64,000 bases of DNA from Tumidithrix helvetica PCC 7403 (GTDB lineage Bacteria > Cyanobacteriota > Cyanobacteriia > Pseudanabaenales > Pseudanabaenaceae). This document shows positions 26,305 through 56,265 of this stretch, piece after piece. The position numbers were made by a program, and so were the translations under genes. Each line of letters opens with the position of its first letter. Position 1 is the stretch's first letter. The stretch spans positions 64,001 to 128,000 of the forward strand of contig NZ_CBDDRA010000001.1 of assembly GCF_965232925.1 (NCBI RefSeq). The letters are read 5' to 3'. The notes beneath the pieces were generated by a model. It had not been told where the DNA came from, made no database searches, and worked only from the letters and a program-made list of their open reading frames with translations.

Positions 26305-26325
26305 ATCTGAGCTTATCCAACAAGT

Positions 26326-31902: not shown

Positions 31903-31993
31903 AATGCCCTTCCTTATTTGAGTCTAACCGTTTTAGATTTTGGATGCAGTAGAAAAAGAAGTAATTCCTTACAGTCTCCCCTCTGTCTGGGAA

Positions 31994-32659: not shown

Positions 32660-32959
32660 TTATCCTCCTCGTTTTGGTGCGATCGGTTGGAGTCGCTCGA
32701 TCGTACGATTGCGAATCCAAAAAAACATGCCCAAACAAGCGATTAAATGCAGGGGCGCATAGTCTTTGACGCAGAAAAGCAACAGAGAAAATCCCGCCAA
32801 CACAATCCCTAACCTTCCGAAAAAACTGCCTAGAGCTAAGAGGACGGGGGCGCGGGCTTTGGGCAATTTTCGCACCGTCACCCACAATCCACCAAAATAG
32901 ACCGTGCCTAGCACAGCACCTAAAATTAGCGTCAAGGGTAGAAAGAACAAACTAATCAT
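32660..32959 (-). CDS. atpR: N-ATPase accessory membrane subunit AtpR
   Basis: 99 aa, three TM helices with a conserved membrane Arg (WVTVRKLP). It sits between atpQ and atpB, as in N-atp operons. Confidence 0.65.
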   Translation of the reverse strand: MISLFFLPLTLILGAVLGTVYFGGLWVTVRKLPKARAPVLLALGSFFGRLGIVLAGFSLLLFCVKDYAPLHLIACLGMFFWIRNRTIERLQPIAPKRGG

Positions 32960-33362
32960 GTTTGACCTCCGTTTCAGAATTAGATTCGGGCTCGGAATCG
33001 GGCTCGGGCTCGGTTAATCGGTCTAGGGGAGCTTGCGATCGCACCATGCGCTCTTGCTCTTGGGCAACCCACTGCCAAGCCACCAAGCAACCCAGCGTCA
33101 AGCCGCCCAACATCAGTGCCAAAGTCCAAGACATCTGACTGGGAAACTGGCGATCGATCCACATGCCCAGCGCCATGCCTAAGAGCGTGGGCGCGACTAC
33201 CGACCAACCGACCAAACCTGCAAAACCCAGACCAAACCAAACGCCCCCAAAGGGTTGGGTTTGACGGGCGTGTAATTTGCGCTGTTCCTTGGTGGCGATC
33301 GCTTCCGTAAAGACATGGGCAGGCGATCGGGCTTTGCGCCGCGAAGATTGAGGGGATTTCAT
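32952..33362 (-). CDS. atpQ: N-ATPase accessory subunit AtpQ (AtpZ/AtpI-like, ATPase gene-1 family)
   Basis: 136 aa; the FGGVWFGLGFAGLVGWSVVAPTLLGMALGMWIDRQFP...WTLALMLGGLTLGCLVAWQWV two-TM core typical of the AtpZ/AtpI family. I chose this frame over the overlapping 32980..33372 ORF. Confidence 0.65.
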   Translation of the reverse strand: MKSPQSSRRKARSPAHVFTEAIATKEQRKLHARQTQPFGGVWFGLGFAGLVGWSVVAPTLLGMALGMWIDRQFPSQMSWTLALMLGGLTLGCLVAWQWVAQEQERMVRSQAPLDRLTEPEPDSEPESNSETEVKHD

Positions 33363-33748
33363 AAAAATTCACCTAACTCGATAAAACGTCGAATCGTGCT
33401 GATTTCGAGTTTTGCCAATACCGATCGCGCTGTTTTTTCGCGATCGCTGAAAGCCCGAAATTGTTGGGCGATCGTTTGTCGCAACATTCCTAGATCCTCC
33501 CCCTTAGCCGCGTGTTGGGTCGAAATTGTAACGGTATCTTCTTGTTTAATTAAAATTCCTTCATCAACTGCCCAAAACTGTTCTTTTCCTTCCTCGGGAA
33601 TAAACGAAAGCAAACTCGGTACCAGTATCGCTACAAAGTCCACATGGCGCGGCAGCAGACAAAACGAACCATTCTCGGCTTCGGCAACGACTTTGCTGAC
33701 TTCCGTTTCCAGCAAAATCTTGGTAGGTAAGATAATTTTGAGCAGCAT
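33359..33748 (-). CDS. atpC: N-ATPase subunit epsilon
   Basis: 129 aa; N-terminal beta-sandwich (LKIILPTKILLETEVSKV) and a C-terminal helical hairpin. Confidence 0.8.
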   Translation of the reverse strand: MLLKIILPTKILLETEVSKVVAEAENGSFCLLPRHVDFVAILVPSLLSFIPEEGKEQFWAVDEGILIKQEDTVTISTQHAAKGEDLGMLRQTIAQQFRAFSDREKTARSVLAKLEISTIRRFIELGEFL

Positions 33749-33759
33749 GACACACCACT

Positions 33760-35166
<1,407 letters not shown>

Positions 35167-35474
35167 TTAGTAGCTCAGTACTCCTAGAGAATCGTAGCGA
35201 AGTTGTCGTTAGGAAACAGAGAGATTGAACTGATTATACAAGCCTTCTCAAATATTTACTGGAATAAAAAACCAGCAAAGAGAAGGGGAACGATTAAAAC
35301 CATTACGGCAATAAAAAGAATCGTGCCAGCACTCACTTCTTCCGTTTCCTTAGCTTTGTTTTGCGGTTTTCTCATAATGCACCTGCACAGCTAATCGATA
35401 CCTTGATTTTACCTTAATCTCAGCCTCACCTCTCCTTAAAGTTCCTTCGCATTGAGAATTGTAAACTTGGCTGT

Positions 35475-36137
35475 TCATAACACGATTAGTTTGCGCCGCA
35501 CGGCTTCCATGCAGAGGGCAACGCGGGTACTGGTATTGTTTTCATCGAGATAATCGATTCCCAGTTTTGCCTTTAGCCGTTGAATGGAATTTTGAGCGGT
35601 TTTTAAGGAAATGTTCATGCGTTGAGCGATCGCTTTGTCTGTGAGCGCTTCCCGCCCCAATAGGTTTAGAACTTCTGTCTCGCGTTCGTCTAGATCGATA
35701 TCGTGGCGCAGTTCTCTGGGAATCTCTAGTTTGCCCTCTAGGGCATGTTTGACCCCCTCTAAATAGGCTTTGCGACGTTCGAGTTTGCTGACCACAACAA
35801 ATCCGCCTTTGTGGCGACCGAGCAATTTACTCAGCGGTTTTAAATATCTGTACTCGCTGGTATAAATCAGAACATTCAACATCGGGTAGCCCTGAAAAAT
35901 CTGGCGCAACAGTTCTAAACAGGGTTGCGCCGATTGTTCGCCCGTCGATGTCCCAAATAGCAAATCGACAATAATTAGGTCGGGGATCTCTAGCTTGAGT
36001 CGTTCTAGAGCCTCAGCAGGCGCGTGAGCTATCTCACATATCGCTTCTGGATGAAGTTTTTGTAAAAATAGGCAGTTGTTTTGAGCGACTTCGGGATGAT
36101 CTTCGAGAATTAAAAATAGAGGTGGTCGAGAATCCAT
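35475..36137 (-). CDS. Response regulator, NarL/FixJ family (REC plus LuxR-type HTH)
   Basis: 220 aa; receiver Asp in DLIIVDLLFG; C-terminal LuxR HTH ETEVLNLLGREALTDKAIAQRMNISLKTAQNSIQRLKAKLG. Confidence 0.85.
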   Translation of the reverse strand: MDSRPPLFLILEDHPEVAQNNCLFLQKLHPEAICEIAHAPAEALERLKLEIPDLIIVDLLFGTSTGEQSAQPCLELLRQIFQGYPMLNVLIYTSEYRYLKPLSKLLGRHKGGFVVVSKLERRKAYLEGVKHALEGKLEIPRELRHDIDLDERETEVLNLLGREALTDKAIAQRMNISLKTAQNSIQRLKAKLGIDYLDENNTSTRVALCMEAVRRKLIVL

Positions 36138-36251
36138 AACCTCCCAGCCAAATTGGAATTAGGTATTTATCATAATCCTAAAAGATATCTAAAGAGAAGC
36201 TTGTTTTTGCATAAATTTACAGTTACATAGTTCAAAACGACTAAATTTCGA

Positions 36252-38168
36252 TTAATTAAAGGCAATTTCCCAAGAAAGCTGCACTCTTAAGCCCCCCTCT
36301 TGTAAGGCGACGCATTCAAATAAGCCATCGGGTAGCTCTGTCGCGATCGTTGCCATAAATTTCATCCCATAGCCTCCCTGCATTCTCAAATTTGTCGGGC
36401 TCTCAAAGGTTGCGGGATCAAGTTGTGAACCATCATTCTCGATCGCCAGCGAACAATACCTATCTTGCTGACTCAGAATCACCTTAACCTGCGTAGCCTT
36501 GCCATGGGGTGGTTGAGCGTGGATCGTGACATTGGTAATCGCCTCAATAAAAAAACGATAAATATCCTCGCGGGCTGCTAGCCAGAGGCTATTGAGTTCG
36601 GGTTCGTCGAGGGGTTGGATGTCTTGAATGACGCTGAGGGTGAGTTCTCTAGAATTGATGAGTTGGTACAGTTTCGCTTCTATGCCAGCAGCCAATCCTG
36701 CTTTCAATTTGGGCGTGAGTTGCAGCGCGATCGCACGAGTTTGATTTAACTGCTGGCGCAGGTGCTGCCCCATGCTTGCCAAGCGATCTAGAATGGGGTC
36801 GAGTTTGGATGCCGTTCCGTTTACTTGCAACATTTCTAGGCGATCCATCACGAGTTTTAGTTCTTGGAGCGGCCCTTGGTGAATATTGGCGGCGAGGCGA
36901 TGCAGCGTTTTTTGGGCTTGTGCGAGAATTGCTGCTTGTTCGATATTGTGTAGGCGATCGATTTCGCACTGTTGCTGGTAGATCAGATCTTTTTGGATGC
37001 CCAAGCGTAAGGAAATAAATACAGATATTGCGGTTGCACCCCAAACGCAGAGGGGAAAGGGTACGGGTAGAATCCAGCCTTGACTAAATAGCAGCAGCCC
37101 GAGTAGACCAAACCCACCCAGCCCAAAGATTGGACTGAGCCAATAGCGGTATCGTCTTCTCAAATTCCTGCTCAGTTTTCCATAGATAATCCATGCAGCG
37201 ATCGCGACGCCACCCCAAACAATGAGAGCATTTTGAATCCATAATGGCACGATGCGATAAAAAGAGTTGGTCAGCAAACTTGCCAGCAGATTGGCTTGCA
37301 GCTCGACCGCAGGCATGAGTTCGCCAAACGGCGATCGAATTGCAAAGGCATCGGGGTTAGAAGTATCTGTAAAGCCGATCGAGACAATTTTATTGCGAAC
37401 CTGTGCCAGCAATGGACTATTGCTTAAAATCGATTCCGCCTTGAGTCTAGGGAAGGTTCCCGTCGCTCCCCAGAAACGGATCTGAATGGGGGATGGGGAA
37501 GGAAACTGCTCTCGAACTTGGGGATTGAATTTCTTGAGGCTGAGTAGAGCGGCGGAGTCGAGTGTTTCTGGGCGATCTAGATTATGGGAGAGCGTGAATT
37601 CTCCTGACAAATTTGCCTGACGCGCTGTGCTTTTAGAACCAAAGGGATGTTTGGCTTCTGGCTCGAATTCGGAAAATCCTACAATCGATCTGGGCGAAAA
37701 TAGAGGGTTCCCTCGATCGGTTGAGGGAAGAAAGTATTCGTAACTTCGCCATTCTATGGGATTTGACTGACTGGCACTGGAAGTGGGAATGACAACGACG
37801 ATCCGAGAGGTATTTTCTTGAACTAAGGTTTTGATGGGATGATTAGCATGATCTGAGGTCTGCACCCAGTTGGGCATTAGGTTAAGAACGACGACCGATG
37901 CATCTGCGTCGAGAATCCGCTTGACTAATGAGGTATAAACTATCGGCTCTTTGTCTAGTCCCCAACTTCTCAAGTCAGAATCGGTAATGGGGACGAGCAA
38001 AATCTCTGGGGGAGGCGTGCTGGGATGGCTCAGATAGATAAGGCGATCCTGTAGAGACAGGTCGAGTTGTTGAATGACAGGAAGATCGAAGAGAATTAGA
38101 CTCCACAAAAGGCTCCAGCCTATTCCCAGCCAGAGGGCAGTGCGTTGCCATGCTTTACGGAGTGTCAT
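36252..38168 (-). CDS. CHASE2-domain sensor histidine kinase (HisKA_3/HATPase_c)
   Basis: 638 aa; N-terminal TM plus a CHASE2-like extracytoplasmic domain, three further TM helices, an H-box ANIHQGPLQELK (NarX/LiaS type) and a C-terminal HATPase_c. Confidence 0.8.
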   Translation of the reverse strand: MTLRKAWQRTALWLGIGWSLLWSLILFDLPVIQQLDLSLQDRLIYLSHPSTPPPEILLVPITDSDLRSWGLDKEPIVYTSLVKRILDADASVVVLNLMPNWVQTSDHANHPIKTLVQENTSRIVVVIPTSSASQSNPIEWRSYEYFLPSTDRGNPLFSPRSIVGFSEFEPEAKHPFGSKSTARQANLSGEFTLSHNLDRPETLDSAALLSLKKFNPQVREQFPSPSPIQIRFWGATGTFPRLKAESILSNSPLLAQVRNKIVSIGFTDTSNPDAFAIRSPFGELMPAVELQANLLASLLTNSFYRIVPLWIQNALIVWGGVAIAAWIIYGKLSRNLRRRYRYWLSPIFGLGGFGLLGLLLFSQGWILPVPFPLCVWGATAISVFISLRLGIQKDLIYQQQCEIDRLHNIEQAAILAQAQKTLHRLAANIHQGPLQELKLVMDRLEMLQVNGTASKLDPILDRLASMGQHLRQQLNQTRAIALQLTPKLKAGLAAGIEAKLYQLINSRELTLSVIQDIQPLDEPELNSLWLAAREDIYRFFIEAITNVTIHAQPPHGKATQVKVILSQQDRYCSLAIENDGSQLDPATFESPTNLRMQGGYGMKFMATIATELPDGLFECVALQEGGLRVQLSWEIAFN

Positions 38169-38237
38169 TTGGGTTACATGAAATAGTCTATTGAAATTTT
38201 TACAAGCAATATAGGCTTAAGTAGCCGATAAAGTCTA

Positions 38238-40703
38238 CTACGGCTTCTCAAAGATTACTCCCCATCCTGTACCTTTTCCATCAACTTCCCATCGAGGTCC
38301 CCAATTTTTCTTGCTGTAAAGCATATAGCGTCCATCTTCGTTAGATGTATAGCCACCATTGACTAAATCTGCTTCACCATAGGGATCCATGAAATAATAT
38401 GCGTTTCTATCTGCTTTGCACCCAACAACTAGGCACCAGTGACCACCCGTAGGACTATCAACAGAACCATGATGATTCCATCCAACTGCTATGGGGAACC
38501 CTTGTGCAAGTTGCTCATCTAGATCTTTAAAACTCAGGTCTTGTCTATAATGGGCAGTAATTCCATAGCTTTTTAGGGCTTCAACTTGTGCAGTAGGTTC
38601 AGTTGTATCCCCATATTTGAGAACAGTTGCTAGGTATGTATCATCAGCATTTTCCCCACTTAATGCTTCGGGTCGTAAATACTTTAATGCCATAGCACAG
38701 GTACTTGAAAAGCACATGCGCTGGGCATTGGGAGTTGTAGAATCTAATTGGCTATAGTACTGTACATTTAGTTTGATTTCCCGATTAAGATCAGCATTAT
38801 CTCTAGCATTTTCTTGTAGAGGCTTCGGGGATGTGCCTTCTAATTTACTTAGACCTTGCTGCCAAAGATCGCCTTCTGCACTTCGCCTCCTCCTCAAGCC
38901 TTCTTCTACATTAGAGCCAGGATTAACATACAGCATGAGTGCTTTGGGTACATAATGCCATCGCTTATCTCTTAGACAAGCTGTAATTGTATGGAAGCCA
39001 TCATCGCCATAAAAATACGCTCCTAGATTATAGGCAAAACTGCACAAAGCAGAACGCATATCATCATGCATCTCATTCCAGTAGGGGATCTTTTTTTGGA
39101 GGATATCCCAAAAGTTTTTCTCAAGATTAATGGCAAGGTATTCATCTGCTTCCACTTGAGAAATACAATCGTTCTTTCCAACTTTTTTCCCATCAGGATA
39201 GACTGTAGTCCCCCAACCAATTGTCCAAGGTTCGCCGTTAGTTTTAGGATCTGGATAAGCAGATAGTTCGCAACCTTCAAATTCTTTAATGAGCTTAACT
39301 GCTTGCAAGGGCACACCGCTTACCCTTTTAGTAGCTTCGGCTGAGACTTGAGGCAACTTGGGCGTTACTTCCTTAAGATTTTCAGTAGTTGGTATAGTCA
39401 GAGTAAGAACACTGGTTATCGCGGCATCTGACTGCTGAGATGAGTTGGTGATTGAGGATTGCTGTGCAGAAGGAGTTAGTTGTATCAACGGACTTGGGAA
39501 TATACTATTGAGTAAGGCTAAAGCCTTACTTTGCTGTCTAAGCCAGTCCTGATTTTGGGTGAGCCAATCTTTTATAGGAATCTCTACCCCATCGCTCTCA
39601 TACTCTCTAAGAGTCTTTTCTAGTCCTTTATTGTGGTCAACAGCAACTAAGTCCCGCAAAATTTCTTCCCTTCCTTGAGAAGCCCTATTTGTGTTCTCTC
39701 CTGCTTGTTTGGCAAGTTTGATTCTAGCGATCGCTCTGTAAAGTTCGTATTTCCAAGAATCTTCTCTGATCGATGAACCTCGAAGTTCAATTGCGCGATC
39801 GAGGTTGGAGATAGCATCTGCTAAAAGGGGAGGTTCTGACTCAATATAGGCATAAACTAGCTGAGCCAGATAATCAGGTTGATTGTCATCACTCTCTACA
39901 AGAGCTTTAAAAATAGGAATAGTCCTCTGACTCCGAAGTCTAAATGCAGAAGCTTTAGAGCGCTGAGCCGCTCGACGAGCATCGCTGGCACGGTAAAAAA
40001 TAAGTTCTTTGTCTTCAAGATCGGCTTTTTGAATTTTCTTTTGGAGATCTGATAACTCAGGCTCAGTCAGTCCGTTTTGAATTTGGCGATTGACAAGCAC
40101 AAGTAGATCCTTTCCTTCGGCTATTTGCTCTTTCTCTGCGTTAGCTTGCTTAGCATCTCTTTGGGCTAAATCAGCTCGCTCAATCAGTTCAAGTTGCTTT
40201 TTGAGTAACGCATTTAGGATGAGTTGACCACCGTAGCCGCCAACCAGTCCGGTCACAAAGACTTTAATTCCGCTGTTAATGCCACTTAGGTATTCAGTTG
40301 GTACAAAAACATAGGCAATAAATGCACCGCTTATGCCAATGAAGATTTCTCCCAAAAATCCAGGCTTAAGACCAGTGTCATCTTCACTCCAAGAAGGTAA
40401 ATCTAACTGACCATGTATCAAGATAGTGTGAAGAATTGCTCCCAGTGTTCCTGCTAGTGTGAGACTTAGATAGAGAGGATTTGCCTTGTTTAGCCATCCT
40501 AATAAATATGGCATACCTGAAACAGCATCTTCCGATGGATTTGTATGGCTGATAAGCTTGGCGAAGCCCAAAGCCATGAAAATCCCCAAACTAAACATCA
40601 AAATAAAATACAAAAATCTTAAGAGTCTTGGGAAAAATCTACGTCTCGTTCCGTTCATAAATTTAGGTTCCACTAGTTGGAAAGTTAGTGTGTTCGCAGA
40701 CAC
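38238..40703 (-). CDS. Multidomain membrane-anchored cell-wall hydrolase: four N-terminal TM helices, a long coiled-coil/helical linker, a GH24 phage-type lysozyme domain and a C-terminal C39-like cysteine peptidase domain
   Basis: 821 aa. TM helices at roughly residues 25-175. Lysozyme motif LIKEFEGCELSAYPDPKTNGEPWTIGWGTTVYP. C-terminal Cys/His pair in MCFSSTCAMALKYL ... GGHWCLVVGC. Confidence 0.7.
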   Translation of the reverse strand: MSANTLTFQLVEPKFMNGTRRRFFPRLLRFLYFILMFSLGIFMALGFAKLISHTNPSEDAVSGMPYLLGWLNKANPLYLSLTLAGTLGAILHTILIHGQLDLPSWSEDDTGLKPGFLGEIFIGISGAFIAYVFVPTEYLSGINSGIKVFVTGLVGGYGGQLILNALLKKQLELIERADLAQRDAKQANAEKEQIAEGKDLLVLVNRQIQNGLTEPELSDLQKKIQKADLEDKELIFYRASDARRAAQRSKASAFRLRSQRTIPIFKALVESDDNQPDYLAQLVYAYIESEPPLLADAISNLDRAIELRGSSIREDSWKYELYRAIARIKLAKQAGENTNRASQGREEILRDLVAVDHNKGLEKTLREYESDGVEIPIKDWLTQNQDWLRQQSKALALLNSIFPSPLIQLTPSAQQSSITNSSQQSDAAITSVLTLTIPTTENLKEVTPKLPQVSAEATKRVSGVPLQAVKLIKEFEGCELSAYPDPKTNGEPWTIGWGTTVYPDGKKVGKNDCISQVEADEYLAINLEKNFWDILQKKIPYWNEMHDDMRSALCSFAYNLGAYFYGDDGFHTITACLRDKRWHYVPKALMLYVNPGSNVEEGLRRRRSAEGDLWQQGLSKLEGTSPKPLQENARDNADLNREIKLNVQYYSQLDSTTPNAQRMCFSSTCAMALKYLRPEALSGENADDTYLATVLKYGDTTEPTAQVEALKSYGITAHYRQDLSFKDLDEQLAQGFPIAVGWNHHGSVDSPTGGHWCLVVGCKADRNAYYFMDPYGEADLVNGGYTSNEDGRYMLYSKKNWGPRWEVDGKGTGWGVIFEKP

Positions 40704-40967
40704 TGGATATAGCTTTACTCCTCGTGGACTCTAGCAAGATTCCTATCTACTCTTCAATACAGATAACAGTGATTTTATTTGCGGTTTAACGCAATTTTAT
40801 TTCCCTTAACGGTTATGTTGTTTAGACCTTATTTAGGTTAGGGTCATAATCAAGTTCGCGATCGAGAGATTTGGTTTCCTCCATTTTAGAATTGAAATCC
40901 TTATGTTCTCCTAGCTAGCTTTTAATACAAAGAAACAGAAAACACGCTCGTTTTGAGGATTAATCAT

Positions 40968-41267
40968 ATGAATCCACTGGATATAGTTTTTCGGATACTA
41001 GGTGACACAGATGAATTTATAAGTAAAGTGAATCAGGCTTGTGCCGATAAGGGGCTACCTCCAGCATTGCCGGGGAATACAGATTATCGCTTTGAAGGGT
41101 TTGGTGTTGCTTTTATAGGGTTTAAGCCTTATCTAACATTTTGGCTGCATTACAAGCCAGATAGTCCGCAACATATAGCGTTCGATAGGTTTGAAATTCC
41201 TATTAGTTACGCTCAATCATTGCATTTAGTTGCAGATTTGGGACATCCCGCAAATGCAACTGGATGA
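40968..41267 (+). CDS. Hypothetical protein
   Basis: The ORF track begins at a TTG (40953). The first ATG (MNPLDIV...) is at 40968, with GAGGA 8 nt upstream. No recognisable motif. Confidence 0.45.
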   Translation: MNPLDIVFRILGDTDEFISKVNQACADKGLPPALPGNTDYRFEGFGVAFIGFKPYLTFWLHYKPDSPQHIAFDRFEIPISYAQSLHLVADLGHPANATG

Positions 41268-41314
41268 TTGGAACTGTTGGAATTGAGTCCTTATCTTGTG
41301 GCTCTAGACACCTG

Positions 41315-41363
41315 TTGACATGCTGGCTAATGATTTCAAGCTTTTGTCCAGCCAGCATGTCAT
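41315..41363 (+). terminator. Stem-loop between the hypothetical gene and the alpha/beta-hydrolase gene
   Basis: GACATGCTGGCT (41317-28) pairs perfectly with AGCCAGCATGTC (41350-61); 21-nt loop. Confidence 0.4.
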
Positions 41364-41458
41364 AGTTTAAATTCAATTTCAGGGTAGTGAATCTTAAGAG
41401 AGGAGAGTCCAATAGCGTTACAGATAATTAATTTACTTTGATATGAGGAGTTAGTCTT

Positions 41459-42382
41459 ATGGCTAGCGTACAAACTTGGAAAGAATATTATCAGCAGCAT
41501 CTCAAAATCAATCCTAATTTGGTTCGAGATGGTTGCGAACCGCGTATCATGCTTCATGAAGAGTCACAAGAACATACTATTGTTTTGTTGCATGGACTAA
41601 CTGACTCTCCCTACTTTATGGAAGCAATTGGCAAGCAATTTTATGATATGGGATTTAACGTCTTGATTCCTTTGTTAACTGGGCACGGACTCAGAAATCC
41701 ACAGGGAATGAAGGGGGTGACTCTAGAACAGTGGATTGATAACGTTGATTTTGCTGTCAAGAAAGCTAGAGGTATGAGCCCAAAAGTCTCTATTGGTGGA
41801 CTGTCTACTGGAGGCGCACTCAGTGTCTATAAAGCAGTAACTGCTCCCAAAGAGATTACTGGAGGAGTCTTTCTGTTCTCTGCTGCTTTAGAACTAGCGT
41901 CGGGAGAAATTACCGAGACATTACTCAGAACGAAAGTTATCTTACCGTTACTTGCTTTTGTAGAGGACTTGAAAGACAAATCTCTAGTCGGTGACAATCC
42001 CTATCGCTATGACAGAATGGATAAACATGGAGCTGCGAAATTATCCGAATTGATTGAGAAGACAGATCGTCTTATTAAAGGGGAACAACACAAAGGTTTA
42101 ACTCAACCCCTCTTTATCGCTCATTCAGAGGATGACACAGCCGCTAAAATTGAGGGGGTCGAAGACTTATATGCAAAAGAACCTCCAGATAAGCGCGAAT
42201 TTTTCAGGATACCAAAACAACGTCAAGTTTCACATGCTAGCGTTGTTTTAGAAGCAGATATTAAAGCCAGCGATGGTCGTGTTTTAGAGCAAAAGAATCC
42301 CTTGTTTAGCGAGATGATGGATCGAGTTTGTGAATTCTCCAGAACGCATCTTGTTATAGAACCAATAAGTCTTATTGCCTGA
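41459..42382 (+). CDS. Alpha/beta-fold hydrolase (esterase/lysophospholipase-like)
   Basis: 307 aa; HGLTDSP oxyanion region; nucleophile elbow GLSTGG; no signal peptide. Confidence 0.75.
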   Translation: MASVQTWKEYYQQHLKINPNLVRDGCEPRIMLHEESQEHTIVLLHGLTDSPYFMEAIGKQFYDMGFNVLIPLLTGHGLRNPQGMKGVTLEQWIDNVDFAVKKARGMSPKVSIGGLSTGGALSVYKAVTAPKEITGGVFLFSAALELASGEITETLLRTKVILPLLAFVEDLKDKSLVGDNPYRYDRMDKHGAAKLSELIEKTDRLIKGEQHKGLTQPLFIAHSEDDTAAKIEGVEDLYAKEPPDKREFFRIPKQRQVSHASVVLEADIKASDGRVLEQKNPLFSEMMDRVCEFSRTHLVIEPISLIA

Positions 42383-42480
42383 AACATGGCATCTTTTTAC
42401 AATTTGTTAACCTTTACAAGCGAATTCATCAGAAATCTAGAACACAATTGAATCTTGAAAAAATAGTTAAAGAGGTATTT

Positions 42481-43734
42481 ATGAGTTGGCAAGATTTTAT
42501 AAAAGCAGTGGCAGAAGCTGACTTTGAGTTTGAGTGGCAGCGTCCATTAATCATTGCTCAATCTATTTTGGAAAGTGGCAGAGGGACAACAGATCTAAGC
42601 CGTTATAAAAACATGAACGGCATGAAATATCGAAAATCAATAGCGATTTCTGGTGCTGAAAAATTCTGGTATAAAACTGACAGTGAACCAGATCCACCAG
42701 GTGGCGATTGGTTTTTCGCATTTGACACCTATAGAACAGGAATAGATACTTGGAAAAAATTCTACTTCCGTAAAGATGGCGATTGGATTCCTTATCCCAA
42801 AGTCTATGAACGCGATCCTAAAATCTTAGAAGACGCTCGTTCTTTTCTAGACTACATTGGAAAGATTTATTGTCCTCATTTTGAGGATTCTCATGACGTT
42901 AGCTATGCAGACTACATCATGAATCGATGCTATCCAGAAGCACAAAAACTTTTGCGAGAGATTGCTGGAGAAGAATTTATGTTATTGCAAGTAGGTAGTC
43001 AAGGTTCACAAGTTGGACAATTACAAGCTAAACTCAATGAACTTGGCTTTAATTGCGGTAAGGTTGACGAGATTTTTGGCTCCAAAACCAAACAGGCTGT
43101 TGAAAATTTCCAAAGGGAGCATTTGGGGCAAGCTGAAGTAACTGGAATAGTTGATGAACGAACTTGGAATCAAATTATAAATCATCCTTCTGTTCGCCTA
43201 GCTTCTGTTTTAATCGATCCAGGGCATTCTCCTATTCATTCGGGTACTGATGCAAAAGACGGAACTCCTGAGTATGATATGAATCTTTTGCAAGCTAAAA
43301 TTGTGAAAGCAGAACTGGATAAGGCAAATATTTCAGCCGAGATTTTCGATCCAGCAAGCGATCCACTTAGTCTTATTGGGCAAAAGGCGACAGGTCGTTC
43401 CATGTTTCTCAGTTTGCATCACAATGCTACAGACAGAAAACCTCACTACACCTGTGTAATGGTTCACCCAACAAAAGCCAAAGCACGATCAATCGCTTTT
43501 GCTAAAAAACTTTCAACTGCGGTGGCTAATGCGATCGGACAAGAGGATTTCGGTGTAATGAAACGTGGTGTAACCGTTCTCTCTGAGTCTGAAAACACAA
43601 ATTGTCCGATTTGCGTTCTATGTGAGAGCTATTTTTTAGATGCAATTGATACGCGAGAAGAAGCTGAAAAACTATCTACTAAAGCGGCTTATGCGATCGC
43701 ATCAACGGTTATTGCTGAGCTACAAACCGCATAA
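42481..43734 (+). CDS. Bifunctional peptidoglycan hydrolase: GH73 glucosaminidase, PG-binding domain and Amidase_3 (N-acetylmuramoyl-L-alanine amidase)
   Basis: GH73 motif IIAQSILESGRGTT...NMNGMKY; PG_binding_1-like LQVGSQGSQVGQLQAKLNELGF...VDERTW; amidase motifs LIDPGHS and LSLHHNA. Real start is the ATG at 42481 (AGAGG SD); the track's 42448 is a TTG. No signal peptide. Confidence 0.8.
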   Translation: MSWQDFIKAVAEADFEFEWQRPLIIAQSILESGRGTTDLSRYKNMNGMKYRKSIAISGAEKFWYKTDSEPDPPGGDWFFAFDTYRTGIDTWKKFYFRKDGDWIPYPKVYERDPKILEDARSFLDYIGKIYCPHFEDSHDVSYADYIMNRCYPEAQKLLREIAGEEFMLLQVGSQGSQVGQLQAKLNELGFNCGKVDEIFGSKTKQAVENFQREHLGQAEVTGIVDERTWNQIINHPSVRLASVLIDPGHSPIHSGTDAKDGTPEYDMNLLQAKIVKAELDKANISAEIFDPASDPLSLIGQKATGRSMFLSLHHNATDRKPHYTCVMVHPTKAKARSIAFAKKLSTAVANAIGQEDFGVMKRGVTVLSESENTNCPICVLCESYFLDAIDTREEAEKLSTKAAYAIASTVIAELQTA

Positions 43735-43823
43735 TCAATATCCCTAATCAAATAGCCTGAACTATTTATATTTATGTAAAATGTAAACCTAATATGAGAG
43801 TTAGTTTTAAGGAGTTTACTTCA

Positions 43824-44588
43824 ATGAGAATTAAACCACTTTCTTTCCTTTGCTCCTTTACTGTTCTAATCATTGCTAGCTCCACGATTCTTGCAGCTTC
43901 TGGGAAAGACTCTGTTGCGCAACTTGTACCGCCAGAAGCACTGAGAGATGCAGCAGAACCTTTACCCAATGAAGTATTAGATAACTTGACTGTAATCAAT
44001 GAATCTAATCCAAACATAAAATGGGATGGCCAACGTGGCAAGAGTCGAGTTTTGGTTGCTACCTTCACAAGAGCAAATGGTCATGCTTCAGGTAAAACCG
44101 CTTCTGTAATCTGGGTTACAGTTGCCCCAGAATTAAAAGACTTCTGTAAAAAATATAAGGATACGGAAGCTACGACAGAAGAACTTAATCGAAGGCTAAA
44201 TCAACTTTTGGGTCTTAGACCTAATGAAGGATTTACACATATTGCCGAAATCTGGGTAGATCCACAGTATCTTAGAAGACCTACTCTAAATCCTGACATT
44301 AGAAGATACCCAACCAAATCAGAACCTCTTCCAATTCAATTGCCCTTGCAATTTCCACAAGGTGTCGATATCGCTTATCAAAAGTGGTTTACAAAACAAG
44401 TTGAGGATCGAGCAAAAAGTTCTTATCCTTGGACTGGATTGGGATATACCTATGATTGGAGTCCTAAAACCAATCTGCAAAATCATGCAGGATTAAGTGA
44501 ATTTATCATTTTCCCTACTCCTGAGACACCTATCCCTATTGAAGTCAAGCAAATTTTACCCACTGAAAAATATTGTGGAATGGAGTAA
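43824..44588 (+). CDS. Secreted hypothetical protein
   Basis: Signal peptide MRIKPLSFLCSFTVLIIASSTILAASG after an AAGGAG SD. The track's ORF starts 30 nt earlier at 43794. Confidence 0.6.
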   Translation: MRIKPLSFLCSFTVLIIASSTILAASGKDSVAQLVPPEALRDAAEPLPNEVLDNLTVINESNPNIKWDGQRGKSRVLVATFTRANGHASGKTASVIWVTVAPELKDFCKKYKDTEATTEELNRRLNQLLGLRPNEGFTHIAEIWVDPQYLRRPTLNPDIRRYPTKSEPLPIQLPLQFPQGVDIAYQKWFTKQVEDRAKSSYPWTGLGYTYDWSPKTNLQNHAGLSEFIIFPTPETPIPIEVKQILPTEKYCGME

Positions 44589-44594
44589 GTAAGT

Positions 44595-45008
44595 ATGAAA
44601 AGCCACATTCAATCTCCTTCTCTATTTGTAGATTATCAAGGCTGGACTGATGAGATAACAATCAAGAACAAACATATCAAACATGTCCACACAGAATATG
44701 AGTATGATAGCCCTGTCAGTGGAAATCCTTCGGGGAGTAAACAATCAGTACTGATTGATAAAAACTTGACAGAGAAGCAGTGGAAAGATCTGAAAACGTA
44801 CATCAAAAATAGTGGATTTGAAAAGCTCGAAGATGCTTATGGGGCTCCAGAGGGACACAGATATTACCCTTGCACCATAACTATCGGTTGGGGATCAGAA
44901 AAAAAAGAAGTTAAGTATCGAAGCAATCCAAGTTATAGCGAAGCGCCCCCAACTTTTAAAAATATAGAGAAATACCTTTTTACTCTGTCTGAGCAGGTGA
45001 GAAAATGA
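44595..45008 (+). CDS. Hypothetical protein
   Basis: 137-aa ORF with GGAG SD, 6 nt after the previous gene (operon-like). Confidence 0.5.
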   Translation: MKSHIQSPSLFVDYQGWTDEITIKNKHIKHVHTEYEYDSPVSGNPSGSKQSVLIDKNLTEKQWKDLKTYIKNSGFEKLEDAYGAPEGHRYYPCTITIGWGSEKKEVKYRSNPSYSEAPPTFKNIEKYLFTLSEQVRK

Positions 45009-45661
45009 CTTGAATAAACAGAGGAGTGTCACTACTGATTTTATTGTAATTCTTCTCTCCATAATACAATCGCGAACTCTTCATGCTATGTCATAAAAAC
45101 TGCGAACCGACTACGGAGAAAATTTAAGGCGATCGCAAAGAATAGAAATTGAGAACTTACAACAATCCTTTAAGTCAATTTAACACTGGGGTATCTATCT
45201 TCCCTTCTCTTTCTATCTCCACTGACTGAGTAGTTGTCTTAATATTTCTCGACGTAGATGGTGGTGATTTTATTTGCAGGTTAACACAAGATTATTTTCA
45301 CAAATCGTTATATTATTCAGGGTATATTCAGGTTAGTATCGTAGCAAGTTCTTGATTGATGCATTGTTTTCCCTAACTTAGAAGCTTAAATATTTCTCTA
45401 AGGCGATCGCTTCTACGTTGATTTCTGGCTCAATGACACGAAAACTGTATCGAGGAGGTAAGAGATTGAAGTGCATGGACTTGAAAATTCCTAGTAGATG
45501 AATCAAGTGGCATAGCGGCATTAACTAATTCAGTCAAATGAGAGCGATGAGAATGCCATTGTCAAGGAATCAGAACATATTTTTGTAATGTGAGGACTTT
45601 ATATCCCTAGGTATTAAATAAAAATTTTGACTTTTTTAAGTACACTTTGGAGGAATTTGTA

Positions 45662-46822
45662 ATGACTGAGATTTCGCAAATTGACTCTTTGAAACTTGAG
45701 CGATTGATAGAACGCATCGAACTACTCGAGTCTAAGCTTGGAATTGACAATCGTTCAGGTAGTACGGGACATGGCAGTAGCGAAGTACAAAGATGTTGTG
45801 CGTTACCACAGGTGCGATCGCGTACATTCGATCCAAGCGTATCGTCCGATCGCATGCGTCTAATTCAGTTAATCGGCAAAAAGTGGGTTAATGGGACAAA
45901 ATTACGCTATTACTTCTTTGAGAGTGGGCCCAACTCAGCTGGCAACGAACAGAAAGATTTTGTCCGACAAGGGTTTGAAGTGTGGAAGAATCTAGGGATT
46001 GGCATTAAGTTTGAGGAGATTCAAAACATCAGCGAAGCAGAGGTACGAATTGGCTTCCTGCAAGGAGATGGAGCTTGGTCTTATGTTGGTCGCGATGTTA
46101 TCGATATTCCTAGACAGGGCGAGCGAACTATGAACTTCGGCTGGGATCTCCGAACCGATCCCCGTGGGGTGGATGTCCCAGTTCACGAGATCGGACATAC
46201 CCTAGGGTTCCCTCACGAGCATCAAAACCCATTTGCAGGAATTGTATGGAACGAAGAAGCCGTTTATAGATATTTCGGAGGTCCCCCTAATAATTGGGAT
46301 CGAGCCACAACGAATTATAATATCCTTGAAAAGCTTGCAACAGGAGAAGTACAAGGTTCTCAATGGGATCCCAACTCGATCATGCATTACGCATTTGCAG
46401 CGGGACTCATCGACCGCCCCGAACAGTATCGTAACGGATTAAGACCTGCTGGCGGAATTTCTGCGTTGGATCGGCAACAAGCCCTCTTCTTTTATCCAAA
46501 GCTTGAAGAATCGAGTTATACAGAACTCAAACCCTTCCACTCGGAGATTTTGGCTCTTGCCCCTGCCGAGCAGAAAAACTTTGCAATTAATCCCACGGCT
46601 ACCCGAAGTTATACCATTCAGACCTTTGGAAAATTGGATACAGTCATAGTTCTTTTCGAAGATCAGAATGGTGACTTGAAGTATGTTGACGGTGACGATG
46701 ACAGCGGCACGGACTTTAACGCACAAATCAACGTGCGGCTTTATCAAGGTCGGCGGTATGTGCTACGGATCCGCTTATATTCTAGTTTTGCTACGGGTGA
46801 AGCCTCGGTCATGCTTTCGTGA
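45662..46822 (+). CDS. Astacin-family (M12A) zinc metalloprotease with N-terminal coiled coil and a C-terminal beta-rich domain
   Basis: Zinc signature HEIGHTLGFPHEHQNP (HExxHxxGxxHE) and Met-turn SIMHY. The track's start at 45647 is a TTG; ATG at 45662 with GGAGGAA SD. No signal peptide. Confidence 0.8.
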   Translation: MTEISQIDSLKLERLIERIELLESKLGIDNRSGSTGHGSSEVQRCCALPQVRSRTFDPSVSSDRMRLIQLIGKKWVNGTKLRYYFFESGPNSAGNEQKDFVRQGFEVWKNLGIGIKFEEIQNISEAEVRIGFLQGDGAWSYVGRDVIDIPRQGERTMNFGWDLRTDPRGVDVPVHEIGHTLGFPHEHQNPFAGIVWNEEAVYRYFGGPPNNWDRATTNYNILEKLATGEVQGSQWDPNSIMHYAFAAGLIDRPEQYRNGLRPAGGISALDRQQALFFYPKLEESSYTELKPFHSEILALAPAEQKNFAINPTATRSYTIQTFGKLDTVIVLFEDQNGDLKYVDGDDDSGTDFNAQINVRLYQGRRYVLRIRLYSSFATGEASVMLS

Positions 46823-46908
46823 GAAGAGATTAAACGCGTAAGCAAAAAAAGTAGCAGAAACAGTTACTCGCCAACGTAAATTCACTTTTATGCAGAAAGG
46901 AGAACTAT

Positions 46909-48213
46909 ATGAATCTTTACAGTGAAAACAGAGCGACTTCTGACATTATGTTGCAGACATTCTATTGGGATGTCACGGTCAGAGGTGAAAGAGGTAAATG
47001 GTATACCCATTTACAATCGCAACTTGCTGATTTTGCGAACGCAGGAATTACTGTACTTTGGCTACCACCACCCAGCAAATCGAGATACCAGCACTATATG
47101 GGATATACGCCCATGGATTATTACGATCTAGGTGAATATAAACAGTGGATTCAAGAGTGGCCCATGACAGGGGCTGACTATTGGGAAGAAAGCAAGGGGG
47201 CTGAAACTCGGTTCGGTACAAAAGCTGAACTCGTTCGACTTAACGATGAAGCTCACAAAGTTGGGTTGAAAGTTATCGCTGACCTCGTACTGAACCACAG
47301 AGAGGCGCAACAGAGAAATATCGCTGGCGAGAAAATCTGCTGGAAAAGCGATCTACATGAGATCGCAAGCAAAAAAATGGCTTGGGGCTACAATCAGAGC
47401 GATCCAATTGAGATTGTAACGGATAGTGGTGGTAGTGGTCGCGATGATGGCGAGTCTGGATTCGCGCCTAATCTTGCTCATACGGAGCCAAAGGTACGCT
47501 TGGAAATTAAAGAGTGGTTAACATGGCTAAAAAATGATATCCACTTCGACGGCTGGCGCTACGATATGGTGAAAGGCTACGCTCCCGAACATGTGGCTGA
47601 GTACAACTACCATACAAAGCCCTATCTAACAGTTGGTGAATATTGGGACGGTACGCAGAAAATCTACGATTGGATCGATCGCTCAGACTCATTTGATGTA
47701 AATAAAAAGTCGATGGCTTTTGATTTTCCGCTTCAAAGTCATTTGCGAAATATTTTTTGGGGAGATAAACCTTTTGAACAACTGGGATTGTGGAAATATA
47801 GCGATGTGAGCGTTACAGGAGGTTGGCCAGCTAAATCAGTGACTTTTCTAGATAATCATGACACGATTCGACAAGCCTACGGCGACTTTCCCCGCGATGC
47901 CAAACGACTTATCCAAGGATATGTTTTCCTCCTTACTCATCCAGGAATTCCCTGTATCTATTGGGAACATATGTATTCCATTGGCTCTAAAGTATTTGAC
48001 AATATCAGTAATCTCGGAAAGCTTCGAGGACAGCAAAATATTACAAATCTGTCACAGGTACAGGTCTTACAGGCAGACAGGAACTGCTATGCTGCAAAAA
48101 TTGACCATAGAACGATTGTTAAGATTGGCGATAGTTTCTGGAATCCTAGTGGTCAGTCAGGCAGTTGGGATTTAAAGATATCTGGCGACGGTTGGGCGAT
48201 CTGGGCAAGCTAG
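46909..48213 (+). CDS. Alpha-amylase (GH13)
   Basis: 434 aa; MLQTFYWD N-terminus; GITVLWLPPPSK; DLVLNHR; GWRYDMVKGY; LDNHDT conserved regions I-IV. No signal peptide. Confidence 0.85.
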   Translation: MNLYSENRATSDIMLQTFYWDVTVRGERGKWYTHLQSQLADFANAGITVLWLPPPSKSRYQHYMGYTPMDYYDLGEYKQWIQEWPMTGADYWEESKGAETRFGTKAELVRLNDEAHKVGLKVIADLVLNHREAQQRNIAGEKICWKSDLHEIASKKMAWGYNQSDPIEIVTDSGGSGRDDGESGFAPNLAHTEPKVRLEIKEWLTWLKNDIHFDGWRYDMVKGYAPEHVAEYNYHTKPYLTVGEYWDGTQKIYDWIDRSDSFDVNKKSMAFDFPLQSHLRNIFWGDKPFEQLGLWKYSDVSVTGGWPAKSVTFLDNHDTIRQAYGDFPRDAKRLIQGYVFLLTHPGIPCIYWEHMYSIGSKVFDNISNLGKLRGQQNITNLSQVQVLQADRNCYAAKIDHRTIVKIGDSFWNPSGQSGSWDLKISGDGWAIWAS

Positions 48214-48259: not shown

Positions 48260-48291
48260 GGCGATCAGAAAGCGCTCGCTTTCTGATCGCC
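48260..48291 (+). terminator. Perfect 15-bp-stem hairpin after the amylase gene
   Basis: GGCGATCAGAAAGCG-CT-CGCTTTCTGATCGCC: every stem base pairs, with a 2-nt apex. 47 nt after the stop. No U-tract follows. Confidence 0.5.
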
Positions 48292-55677: not shown

Positions 55678-55707
55678 TGGAAATGGGAAATAAGGAGGTA
55701 ATGGGAT

Positions 55708-56229: not shown

Positions 56230-56265
56230 GGGAAACGACATAATACTTTAATCAGCACAAATCCT

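Follow-up and report, generated by a model that had tools for sequence, protein, structure and literature searches.

A putative two-component-controlled, hypervariable lytic-enzyme regulon in Tumidithrix helvetica PCC 7403, with a polymorphic family of membrane-anchored lysins

The region considered here lies at positions 38238-48213 of a 64,000-nucleotide (nt) stretch of the genome of Tumidithrix helvetica PCC 7403, a filamentous cyanobacterium (contig NZ_CBDDRA010000001.1, positions 64,001 to 128,000; hereafter the window), and comprises eight genes, whose products are a membrane-anchored lysin (TM-lysin), a 104-residue protein, an alpha/beta hydrolase (esterase), a glucosaminidase-amidase fusion, a secreted 264-residue protein, a 137-residue protein, a zincin-fold protein, and an alpha-amylase. 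A first-pass annotation of the same DNA had suggested that this block is a horizontally acquired lytic or digestive module, possibly an insertion between the histidine kinase gene and the heme oxygenase gene ho1. By comparison with related loci, the block was shown to be the cargo of what appears to be a conserved platform in several filamentous cyanobacteria, formed by a NarL-type two-component system and a 51-nt promoter, behind which each lineage carries a different AT-rich, HIP1-poor, and apparently laterally exchanged set of mostly signal-less degradative enzymes. An insertion beside an unrelated kinase was not borne out, since the kinase-regulator pair, judged from these loci, is a conserved anchor that belongs to the system together with the shared promoter. 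The region would be better described as a two-component-controlled, hypervariable lytic-enzyme regulon, which includes a new polymorphic family of membrane-anchored lysins. No earlier account of the kinase-linked regulon, the 51-nt promoter, or the TM-lysin family was found in literature searches, and these searches likewise brought up no cyanobacterial report of CHASE2 kinases tied to lysis, of the genetics of necridia, of paired SPFH and wall hydrolase genes, or of NarL-type lysis regulons.

The kinase-regulator pair and its shared promoter

The anchor of the region consists of two genes:

35475-36137, minus strand: response regulator with receiver and GerE/LuxR helix-turn-helix domains (NarL family; Pfam Response_reg, GerE)
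36252-38168, minus strand: sensor histidine kinase with periplasmic CHASE2 domain, transmembrane helices, HisKA_3-type H-box, and HATPase domain (Pfam CHASE2 3e-20, HATPase_c_2)

In the kinase, H430 and its surroundings (H-box 'NIHQGPLQELK') are invariant across an alignment of seven orthologues, and the translated regulator contains the acidic pocket, D58 in 'LIIVDL', and the T/S and K residues. This combination of a HisKA_3-type kinase with a receiver-GerE regulator, as expected of a NarL/LuxR two-component system, is conserved as a pair in at least seven loci. Kinase orthologues that are 59-91% identical occur in loci L002-L006 and L022, and regulator orthologues that are 72-96% identical stand beside the cargo arrays of L002, L003, L005, and L025. 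Kinases of 312 residues without the CHASE2 domain and transmembrane helices, which match the C-terminal half of the window kinase with 56-59% identity, were also found (L007, 12703-13641; L025, 5048-5986), and in these lineages the regulator and promoter would consequently be fed by a different, possibly cytoplasmic, input.

Searches started from four proteins (the kinase, the TM-lysin, the amidase fusion, and the 264-residue protein) converged on the same arrangement, in which an orthologous kinase-regulator pair stands beside a hydrolase array. The kinase search led to Microseira wollei (L003; kinase 69% and regulator 80% identical), where a divergent array encodes a DUF3616 protein, an M14 carboxypeptidase, a PLC-like protein, and an amylase, and to Microseira sp. 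(L005), with DUF5648, S8 subtilase, and DUF3616 genes. The TM-lysin search led to L007 and L016, which have a kinase-like gene followed by the TM-lysin gene and, divergently, genes for a 103-residue protein, the esterase, a 307-residue protein, a CHAT protease, an nSTAND1 protein, and a GDSL-motif protein. From the amidase fusion, L021/L022 was reached, where a CHASE2 kinase (59% identical) diverges from 13 genes for mostly signal-less products, including Amidase_2, GH75, VanY, PGBD-DUF4127, and Amidase_3-glucosaminidase proteins and two paralogues of the 264-residue family; on the P0094 contig, the order is regulator, kinase, 348-residue gene, amidase fusion, 308-residue gene, GH75, and 535-residue gene. 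Similarly, the 264-residue protein led to L025, in a 4.9-Mb genome, with the regulator (72% identical), a kinase, genes for 337- and 130-residue proteins, an Amidase_3 protein, an SH3 protein, and a member of the 264-residue family. Three cargo families (Amidase_3, the 264-residue family, and the amylase) recur beside the same kinase. A metagenome scan with the kinase alignment added two more loci, one of which was a duplicate.

The cargo is joined by a repeat of about 110 nt (about 72% identity; 40769-40880 and 45264-45375), whose core is the palindrome TTGCGGTTTAACGCAA and which contains the two promoter copies:

40771-40821, plus strand: cargo promoter copy 1, with palindromic box TTGCGGTTTAACGCAA (40779-40794) and the -10-like TATGTT 19 nt on, facing the operon that starts with the 104-residue gene
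45266-45316, plus strand: cargo promoter copy 2, with degenerate box TTGCAGGTTAACACAA (45274-45289) and, again 19 nt on, TATATT, in front of the zincin-amylase pair

The exact box (TTGCG-N6-CGCAA) occurs once in the 64-kb window against 0.05 expected, and is present at least once each in L003, L005, L006/L023, L007/L008, L016-L018, L021/L022, and L025, so that each kinase-linked cargo locus with cargo-side DNA has one. All the exact boxes lie in kinase-adjacent or inter-cargo intergenic DNA, with one exception (L005, position 9279), while about 2e-4 would be expected per 300 nt; none was found in L002, L004, L024, or the Band_7-type loci described below. With two mismatches allowed, the box is not enriched in the window (39 found vs 37 expected), and only the exact box and context-supported copies were counted as promoter sites. 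Ten sites from seven lineages, read toward the cargo, align over 51 nt with 83% column identity (consensus ATTTTATTTGCGGTTTAACGCAATTTTATTTTCCTAAATCGTTATnTTAT), although the kinases of the lineages that share this promoter are just 59-69% identical, and in all ten a TAnnnT/C hexamer starts exactly at +20 from the box. A sequence model built from this alignment (R1) recovers the ten sites with E-values of 1e-12 to 1e-15 (copy 1, 54.6 bits, E 3e-15; copy 2, 45.5 bits, E 2e-12) and adds two sites within arrays (L021, 3966-4011, E 3e-8; L006, 9121-9142, E 2e-4). No other site was found by R1 in 301 kb, none in kinase-less loci, and no more in window positions 30000-55000 with filters off.

The box is a 16-bp palindrome of 7-2-7 layout placed at about -47 to -32, and the predicted transcription starts of the window lie near 40826 and 45321. 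In ten promoters, the spacing between this inverted-repeat candidate operator and the -10-like hexamer is constant, as in NarL/LuxR regulons. This geometry corresponds to a class II activator layout and the palindrome would suit a NarL/LuxR-type dimer. The regulator is a candidate activator of the cargo promoters, and the consistent adjacency of its gene suggests that it recognizes the box. The repeat itself runs about 60 nt beyond the predicted transcription start in both copies (40822-40880 and 45317-45375) and this part is kept in L007 and L016. A 5' leader element may thus be common to both transcripts, in which case the leader of the second would measure about 330 nt.

Seven of the eight genes are joined by the two promoter copies into two units. 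The first, headed by copy 1, spans 40953-45008 and contains the 104-residue, esterase, glucosaminidase-amidase, secreted 264-residue, and 137-residue genes, and the second, headed by copy 2, spans 45647-48213, contains the zincin and amylase genes, and ends at a hairpin. Domains were assigned with Pfam, NCBIfam, and PHROGs, and signal peptides and transmembrane helices were called by a hydropathy scan.

40953-41267, plus strand: 104-residue protein without transmembrane helix, signal peptide, or family match
41459-42382, plus strand: alpha/beta hydrolase (Hydrolase_4) of 307 residues with GLSTG nucleophile elbow (Pfam 5e-13; phrog_789 esterase/lipase; no signal peptide)
42448-43734, plus strand: glucosaminidase (weak match)-PG_binding_1-Amidase_3 fusion of 428 residues, endolysin-like (Pfam, PHROGs; no signal peptide)
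43794-44588, plus strand: secreted 264-residue protein (TUMEXPCC7403_00490), without Pfam model and with invariant motifs YPWTGLGYTYDW and GLSEF
44595-45008, plus strand: cytoplasmic 137-residue protein, starting 7 nt 3' of the 264-residue gene (weak DUF6438 match, E 1.5e-4, below cut-off)
45647-46822, plus strand: zincin-fold protein of 391 residues with HEIGHTLGFPH motif (Astacin/M10; Pfam Astacin 8e-10; no signal peptide)
46909-48213, plus strand: GH13 alpha-amylase of PRK09441 type, 434 residues (Pfam, NCBIfam; no signal peptide)
48260-48291, plus strand: perfect 15-bp hairpin (inverted repeat I5), 3' of the amylase stop codon

The domain calls of the first-pass annotation were all confirmed by Pfam, except that its 'astacin' is better placed as a zincin of the SCO6992/AbsR1 family, to which the protein is closest (NCBIfam AbsR1, 2e-120, 402 bits, below the cut-off of 650). 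For SCO6992, beta-glucuronidase activity has been shown, and no protease activity (PMC9705864). Its expectation of a single Sec signal peptide also held: among the eight products, only the 264-residue protein has a signal-like N-terminus and only the TM-lysin has transmembrane helices, and an export signal is missing from six of the eight.

The TM-lysin and the 264-residue protein are 100% identical to hypothetical proteins of the same strain (TUMEXPCC7403_00470 and TUMEXPCC7403_00490). The 104-residue protein keeps an identity of 71-74% in L007 and L016 no matter which enzymes form the C-terminus of the adjoining TM-lysin, and it is therefore not a domain-specific immunity protein; as a cognate immunity protein it was rejected because it does not co-vary with the TM-lysin enzymes (GH24 and C39, or SLT and M15). 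The esterase is 74-76% identical in L007 and L016, and a homologue adjoins an amidase fusion, 94% identical, in another genome (GCA_041443025), where that fusion is accompanied by a gene for a 137-residue protein and followed by a Peptidase_C14 gene. The 264-residue family is distributed among cyanobacteria, myxobacteria, and others; the protein may have an ADP-ribosyltransferase/NADase-like fold, and Foldseek with its model returned no matches. The 137-residue protein is possibly an immunity or partner protein. Sequence searches of the PDB with the 264-, 137-, and 104-residue proteins gave no match. The kinase-linked cargo array of Microseira wollei includes an amylase 33% identical to that of the window.

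The hairpin at 48260-48291 probably marks the end of the last cargo unit before ho1 (48456), and was not scored by a simple terminator scan because it lacks a T-run. A perfect 12-bp stem with a 21-nt loop (GACATGCTGGCT...AGCCAGCATGTC; 41317-41361), likewise not followed by a T-run, lies between the 104-residue and esterase genes and could be an attenuator or processing site inside the first cargo unit.

A polymorphic family of membrane-anchored lysins

The eighth gene of the region lies on the opposite strand, 69 nt upstream of the kinase gene and co-oriented with the kinase-regulator pair, and encodes the TM-lysin, which was divided as follows:

38238-40703, minus strand: TM-lysin, a membrane-anchored endolysin of 821 residues (annotated with 779 residues, TUMEXPCC7403_00470; Pfam, PHROGs, AlphaFold2 (AF2))
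40206-40637, minus strand: residues 23-166, four predicted membrane helices (AF2 helices 23-52, 76-97, 116-133, and 144-166; hydropathy)
39501-40205, minus strand: residues 167-401, long helical stalk and TPR-like helical domain (AF2 predicted local distance difference test score (pLDDT) about 90 over residues 210-400)
39324-39491, minus strand: residues 405-460, disordered linker (pLDDT below 30)
38874-39287, minus strand: residues 473-610, GH24 phage-type lysozyme domain (Pfam Phage_lysozyme 9.9e-20)
38379-38771, minus strand: residues 645-775, C39-like cysteine peptidase domain (Peptidase_C39_2, Pfam 5.7e-10; phrog_10051 'endolysin', 239 bits)

The AlphaFold model of residues 1-460 has a pLDDT of 71.6, in which the helix from residue 144 extends as a stalk to residue 209 and is followed by a confident TPR-like domain (214-401), and Foldseek with this N-terminal model against the PDB gave weak TPR matches only. 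Helices 2-4 have sub-threshold DUF4257 matches (E 7e-4), likewise in four relatives, and homologues are labelled YeaQ/YmgE by JGI. The YeaQ/YmgE family is listed in TCDB 1.E.43 as putative 'transglycosylase-associated holins' of poorly understood function (PMC7593918). A separate holin gene was not found among the genes of 38238-48213. Six K/R residues precede helix 1 and a KK..R..R motif follows helix 4, which by the positive-inside rule would place both termini, including the catalytic half, in the cytoplasm; the fourth helix is just moderately hydrophobic.

The catalytic half is of phage type. The GH24 E/D/T motif ('EFEGCELSAYPDP...WTIGWGTT') is readable with its catalytic motifs intact, and the C39-like domain is probably a peptidoglycan endopeptidase. 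Residues 452-819, which contain both domains, are 43-50% identical to two-domain endolysins of Synechococcus myophages, and the same pair of lysozyme and C39 domains is annotated as endolysin in cyanophage DSL-LC02/03, whereas residues 1-451 have no match in 50,697 phage records. A precedent for tethering exists in signal-anchor-release (SAR) endolysins. Unlike phage and SAR endolysins, however, the TM-lysin lies outside any phage context, has a four-helix-stalk-TPR anchor of about 400 residues, and has a predicted orientation that is cytoplasmic instead of periplasmic.

The membrane-stalk-TPR module is the defining part of a family that comprises 569 clusters at 50% identity, many members of which (320-430 residues) consist of the module alone. 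Among 41 long members, the C-termini contain Peptidase_M15_3 (12), SLT (9), GH24 (8), MACPF (6), C39_2 (6), GH19 (6), Jacalin (4), PG_binding_1 (3), and M23 (1) domains, and these C-termini are all envelope-breaching. In six representatives (P0251 and five others), a MACPF/perforin domain, often with a Jacalin lectin, replaces the wall hydrolases on the module. The L007 gene is 85% identical at the nucleotide level to that of the window as far as window position 39423 (about residue 427, in the linker) and thereafter encodes SLT and Peptidase_M15_3 domains, and the linker holds the recombination breakpoint at which C-terminal enzymes are exchanged.

Such families resemble polymorphic toxin systems, which were reportedly described by Zhang and colleagues in 2012 as having a conserved N-terminal trafficking module and a variable C-terminal toxin. 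As in those systems, a conserved N-terminal module carries interchangeable effector domains (GH24, GH19, SLT, M15, C39, M23, and MACPF-Jacalin), with the linker as the swap point. In contrast to polymorphic toxins, no cognate or co-varying immunity gene was found directly 3' of the TM-lysin gene, where the kinase gene comes next; furthermore, the N-terminal module is an integral membrane anchor without a known secretion handle, and the effectors are limited to envelope-breaching activities.

Outside the kinase-linked loci, the family is abundant in the unicellular, bloom-forming Microcystis. In Microcystis, Stenomitos, Spirulina, and two metagenomic lineages, each gene of the TM-lysin family has an orthologous Band_7/SPFH gene directly 5' of it, whose product has 500-613 residues and one N-terminal transmembrane helix, and the two-gene pair has no PADLOC match. 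The partner genes are located as follows:

L010/L011, 6253-7890: Band_7/SPFH partner gene
L012, 6278-7888: Band_7/SPFH partner gene
L014, 6117-7958: Band_7/SPFH partner gene
L020, 7558-9237: Band_7/SPFH partner gene
L009, 36-1118: Band_7/SPFH partner gene

These loci often lie among restriction-modification, toxin-antitoxin, KAP NTPase, transposase, or plasmid genes (in Stenomitos, resolvase, ParA, and TraG-like genes). No Band_7 gene is present in the window.

Composition and exchange of the cargo

The composition of the region agrees in large part with the first-pass annotation, which had called it an AT-rich, HIP1-poor block of about 10 kb with one HIP1 octamer in the gene at 38238-40703. 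G+C content is 0.412 in 38238-48213 against 0.465 across the remaining window, and HIP1 (GCGATCGC) occurs five times (0.50/kb) against 1.59/kb outside (Poisson P(X<=5 | 15.9) = 0.0015). The windowed scan makes this the lowest 10-kb window of the 64-kb stretch on both measures, and the sole HIP1 of the TM-lysin gene is at 39727. The codon-usage comparison is less uniform: the G+C content at third codon positions (GC3) is sharply shifted in the six genes at 38238-45008 (0.26-0.355 vs 0.467 +/- 0.06 in other genes; Mann-Whitney p = 6e-5), but that of the zincin (0.43) and amylase (0.42) genes is inside the core range. Codon-usage scores are below average for all eight genes (z = -1.1 to -3.0). 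Composition thus deviates, in the manner of an island, in six genes and not in the last two, and the claim that the whole block is foreign by composition did not stand; these core-like genes nevertheless have the same promoter. Because promoter copy 2 heads them, the zincin and amylase genes belong to the system despite their composition.

HIP1 scarcity was also considered as proof of foreign origin and was rejected: a 5-kb stretch at 11770-16747 with genes for rpoA, rpsM, an NYN-domain protein, and metG has no HIP1 at all (Poisson p 4e-4), and HIP1 deserts in T. helvetica are not specific to foreign DNA because this core DNA is equally HIP1-free. A second small compositional outlier of two adjacent AT-rich genes (25588-27051; 238 and 241 residues; GC 0.37-0.38, GC3 0.34-0.39; no Pfam match) was seen elsewhere in the window.

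The same composition recurs in the cargo of other lineages. In L021, 13 cargo genes have GC3 of 0.24-0.40 between flanks of 0.44-0.52; in L003 and L005, cargo GC3 is 0.24-0.41, with the single exception of the L003 M14 carboxypeptidase (0.49), against 0.49-0.55 in anchors and flanks; and in L025, cargo GC3 is 0.26-0.38, with one HIP1 in 5.7 kb against 2.6/kb in the surroundings. Cargo is therefore AT-rich at third positions and HIP1-poor relative to anchor and flanks in all lineages examined, and AT-richness is a standing property of cargo arrays and not the mark of one recent event. The compositional signal is real, and it marks a standing pool of exchangeable cargo and no single insertion.

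The content of the site differs among close relatives (T. elongata, L007, L016, and GCA_041443025), and the earlier view that these are accessory lytic or degradative genes is supported. T. elongata shares with the window the kinase-regulator pair alone (91% nucleotide identity over 35459-38169) and its flanks differ on both sides. The metagenomic relatives L007 and L016 keep the membrane lysin, the 104-residue gene, and the esterase, and have CHAT/nSTAND genes in place of the rest. In these two loci (L007, 273-7647; L016, 1-4436), the amidase fusion, 264-residue, and 137-residue genes are replaced by genes for a 307-residue protein of unknown type, a CHAT caspase-like protease, an nSTAND1 NTPase, and a GDSL-motif protein. 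The CHAT, nSTAND1, and Peptidase_C14 genes of the relatives' arrays are cell-death or conflict-type genes.

Horizontal acquisition, as proposed in the first-pass annotation, is upheld as exchange of modules and not as arrival of a discrete 10-kb island. The Amidase_3 module of the fusion is 86% identical in amino acids and 83% in nucleotides to that of an L021 protein with a different domain order, whereas the kinase genes of the two loci are 65% identical in nucleotides, and this excess of module over kinase identity reads as direct evidence of lateral module exchange. No tRNA, Rfam match, or island-flanking repeat was found in window scans, and no mobility domains (integrase or transposase) among the products. 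PHROG matches are confined to the endolysin-type domains and the esterase, with no other phage genes in the neighbourhood, and two viral-contig scans (with the amidase fusion and the 264-residue protein) returned no close relatives; a prophage origin was dropped on the outcome of these scans. No relevant PADLOC match was obtained with any of the eight island proteins, with the Band_7 partners, or with the neighbouring CHAT/nSTAND proteins.

By Pfam, the genes that flank the block are the CHASE2 kinase and ho1, with an ATPase operon beyond the regulator. This alternative F-type ATPase operon (28259-35151, minus strand) adjoins the regulator gene, encodes alpha, beta, and a subunits and ATPase_gene1 (AtpQ/R-like, typical of N-ATPases), is GC-rich (0.50-0.55) and HIP1-dense, and is missing beside the orthologous kinase-regulator pair of T. 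elongata. Downstream of the region, genes for an HlyD-type membrane-fusion protein and an AcrB-family RND transporter (54337-59616) showed no link to the lytic block.

Release of the enzymes and comparison with known systems

The reading that we tentatively prefer, while holding it to be possible and no firmer than that, is that folded hydrolases are set free by cell lysis under the control of the sensor, much as in type 10 secretion or the release of colicins. On sensing an envelope or external cue, the kinase would phosphorylate the regulator, which would bind the box at about -40 in the style of a class II activator and turn on the enzymes, and these would fold in the cytoplasm. The YeaQ/YmgE-like (putative holin) module would then open the membrane and let the cytoplasm-facing endolysin half reach the wall, so that expressing cells would lyse and the enzyme cocktail would come out. 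Such a release would be akin to type 10 secretion or to a colicin-type kamikaze and could serve antagonism or the digestion of surrounding cells and polymers. Six signal-less products adjoin the TM-lysin gene, and an unconventional, lysis-linked export, as already suggested in the first-pass annotation, is a reasonable reading because a holin-like membrane module appears to be fused to an endolysin.

In Yersinia entomophaga (YeRER/YenLC), the regulator RoeA activates a holin/endolysin cassette together with toxins and chitinases that fold in the cytoplasm and come out when a subpopulation of specialised cells lyses (PMC10101115, PMC10847048). Both in such type 10 systems (Y. entomophaga; Serratia ChiWXYZ, PMC10109510) and here, a phage-derived wall hydrolase and a membrane-lesion component, which is here a putative one, adjoin genes for signal-less hydrolases or toxins, and the GH24 and C39-like domains of the TM-lysin supply the dedicated peptidoglycan hydrolase of phage origin. 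A response-regulator-type activator is in control there, and would be here. Unlike in type 10 secretion, a single polypeptide combines the putative holin-like module with the endolysin, a stalk and TPR domain separating the two. Further differences are that the genes of 38238-48213 showed no spanin, that a cyanobacterium is the host, and that the cargo is hypervariable and mainly of peptidoglycan hydrolases. A NarL/LuxR-type regulator with its own kinase also stands in place of the orphan PhoB-like regulator of Y. entomophaga.

Colicin- and pyocin-type bacteriocins are freed by induced lysis of a producing subpopulation under SOS control, and pesticin is a T4-lysozyme-like bacteriocin. The signal-less antibacterial enzymes would similarly exit by induced lysis of their producers. 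Unlike colicins, the cargo appears to be under two-component control, and no receptor-binding domains, translocation domains, or immunity genes were recognized. In Bacillus subtilis, DegS-DegU, a HisKA_3-type kinase and a LuxR/GerE regulator, govern proteases, amylase, and other degradative enzymes; the DegU targets are Sec-secreted and scattered on the chromosome, and DegS is cytoplasmic. The class of kinase and regulator and the battery of degradative enzymes are alike in the two cases, whereas the cargo described here is clustered at the regulators, mostly signal-less, and swappable between lineages, and has a near-identical portable promoter.

Several points weigh against lysis-coupled release. 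Because the promoter faces away from the TM-lysin gene, it is adjacency alone that speaks for co-regulation of the lysin with the cargo. The holin assignment is weak (no DUF4257 match reaches the cut-off, and TCDB itself describes the family as poorly understood in function), and the positive-inside rule is the single argument for a cytoplasmic catalytic half, next to a moderately hydrophobic helix 4. No lipoprotein or coiled-coil spanin-like open reading frame was found among the genes of 38238-48213, where small embedded frames were not exhaustively searched, and the sole signal-bearing product (264 residues) has no lipobox. The kinase-linked arrays of L021, L025, and Microseira are without a TM-lysin, and a different exit route would thus be required there. 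The kinase orthologue of L004 has no cargo and that of L006/L023 only two small secreted proteins. In addition, a cytoplasmic amylase and zincin equally fit ordinary metabolism, and the CHAT/C14 and nSTAND genes of some relatives point to self-directed death over weaponry.

The last of these points leads to the strongest alternative, regulated self-destruction for the cells' own benefit, in which chosen cells of the filament would be dismantled from inside (wall, protein, lipid, and glycogen) for necridia formation and filament breakage, nutrient recycling, or matrix, and not against others. Enzymes without a signal would act on polymers of the cell that made them, with glycogen as a possible substrate of the amylase, and the hosts grow as filaments. 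The TM-lysin gene is not followed by an immunity gene, and the 104-residue partner does not co-vary with its enzymes; the caspase-like genes in some arrays (CHAT, Peptidase_C14, and nSTAND NTPase in equivalent arrays of relatives) keep this explanation alive. An unchanging target would, however, predict a conserved kit, whereas the cargo varies between close relatives and is laterally exchanged. Secreted proteins, the possible ADP-ribosyltransferase-like toxin, GH75 chitosanase, and the PLC-like enzyme have no obvious self target, and the TM-lysin family is plentiful in unicellular Microcystis. On balance, self-destruction is unlikely, although it deserves serious consideration.

Non-lytic wall remodelling or peptidoglycan turnover is improbable. 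Here, the TM-lysin would be a tethered, periplasm-facing hydrolase resembling a SAR endolysin or a housekeeping autolysin, and the signal-less amidases and glycosidases would recycle muropeptides in the cytoplasm under envelope stress. The extracytoplasmic nature of the CHASE2 sensor domain fits this explanation, as do the Amidase_2 and VanY/M15_4 enzymes of L021, which are of types used in recycling, and the moderate hydrophobicity of helix 4, since a three-helix topology would place the enzymes in the periplasm. Against it, PG_binding_1 and SH3 modules on signal-less enzymes are phage-endolysin architecture and unlike recycling enzymes, MACPF pore-formers with lectins replace the hydrolases in six of the 41 long family members, the cargo includes enzymes unconnected with the wall (esterase, zincin, amylase, subtilase, and PLC), and housekeeping functions are neither hypervariable nor AT-rich.

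An anti-phage suicide by abortive infection, with the TM-lysin as an infection-triggered death effector and the remaining block as unrelated accessory genes, seems quite improbable as well. The pairing of TM-lysin and Band_7/SPFH genes among restriction-modification, toxin-antitoxin, KAP NTPase, transposase, and plasmid genes in Microcystis, Stenomitos, and others would accord with it, the polymorphic envelope-breaching C-termini resemble defence effectors, and CHAT/nSTAND genes are neighbours in relatives. PADLOC, however, matched neither the TM-lysin nor the Band_7 partners nor the island proteins, the Tumidithrix copy has no Band_7 partner, and a transcriptional two-component response would be slow for that role. 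It would also be left unexplained why a shared promoter ties seven other genes to a sensor kinase whose CHASE2 domain is periplasmic. Finally, it is very improbable that there is no functional unit at all and that a recombination hotspot or prophage remnant has gathered unrelated accessory genes beside a two-component system, for while variable content, low GC, two endolysin-like proteins, and the missing hydrolase cargo at some kinase orthologue loci fit this, other phage genes, viral-contig relatives, phage matches of the N-terminal half of the TM-lysin, tRNA, integrase, and flanking repeats were all absent from the scans, conserved promoter repeats occur within the arrays and are restricted to them, and the hydrolases recur in independent lineages, three families of them beside the same kinase.

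A bolder form of lysis-coupled release is doubtful but worth stating. The locus may be a portable weapons rack of filamentous cyanobacteria, in which the kinase-regulator pair and the near-identical, activator-dependent 51-nt promoter capture and drive interchangeable, AT-rich genes for signal-less lytic enzymes and toxins, delivery would occur by altruistic lysis of a few cells through the membrane-anchored polymorphic lysins and pore-formers, and SPFH/Band_7 proteins would provide restraint in other cyanobacteria.

The locus offers a testable system with a sensor, a regulator, a candidate operator-promoter, a candidate protein for carrying out lysis, and cargo enzymes, and with the 51-nt promoter as a search handle the whole regulon could be sought in any genome. 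For cyanobacterial biotechnology, an inducible lysis tool might be made from the promoter-regulator pair and the self-contained lysin. The TM-lysin/MACPF family is abundant in bloom-forming Microcystis, where lysis controls toxin release, and the findings bear more generally on the export of folded signal-less enzymes by cyanobacteria, on regulated lysis and sacrificial cells, and on conflict with neighbours. If the weapons-rack interpretation were true, the system would amount to type 10 secretion in a cyanobacterial form that needs a single polypeptide, and would provide a genetic basis for sacrificial cells.

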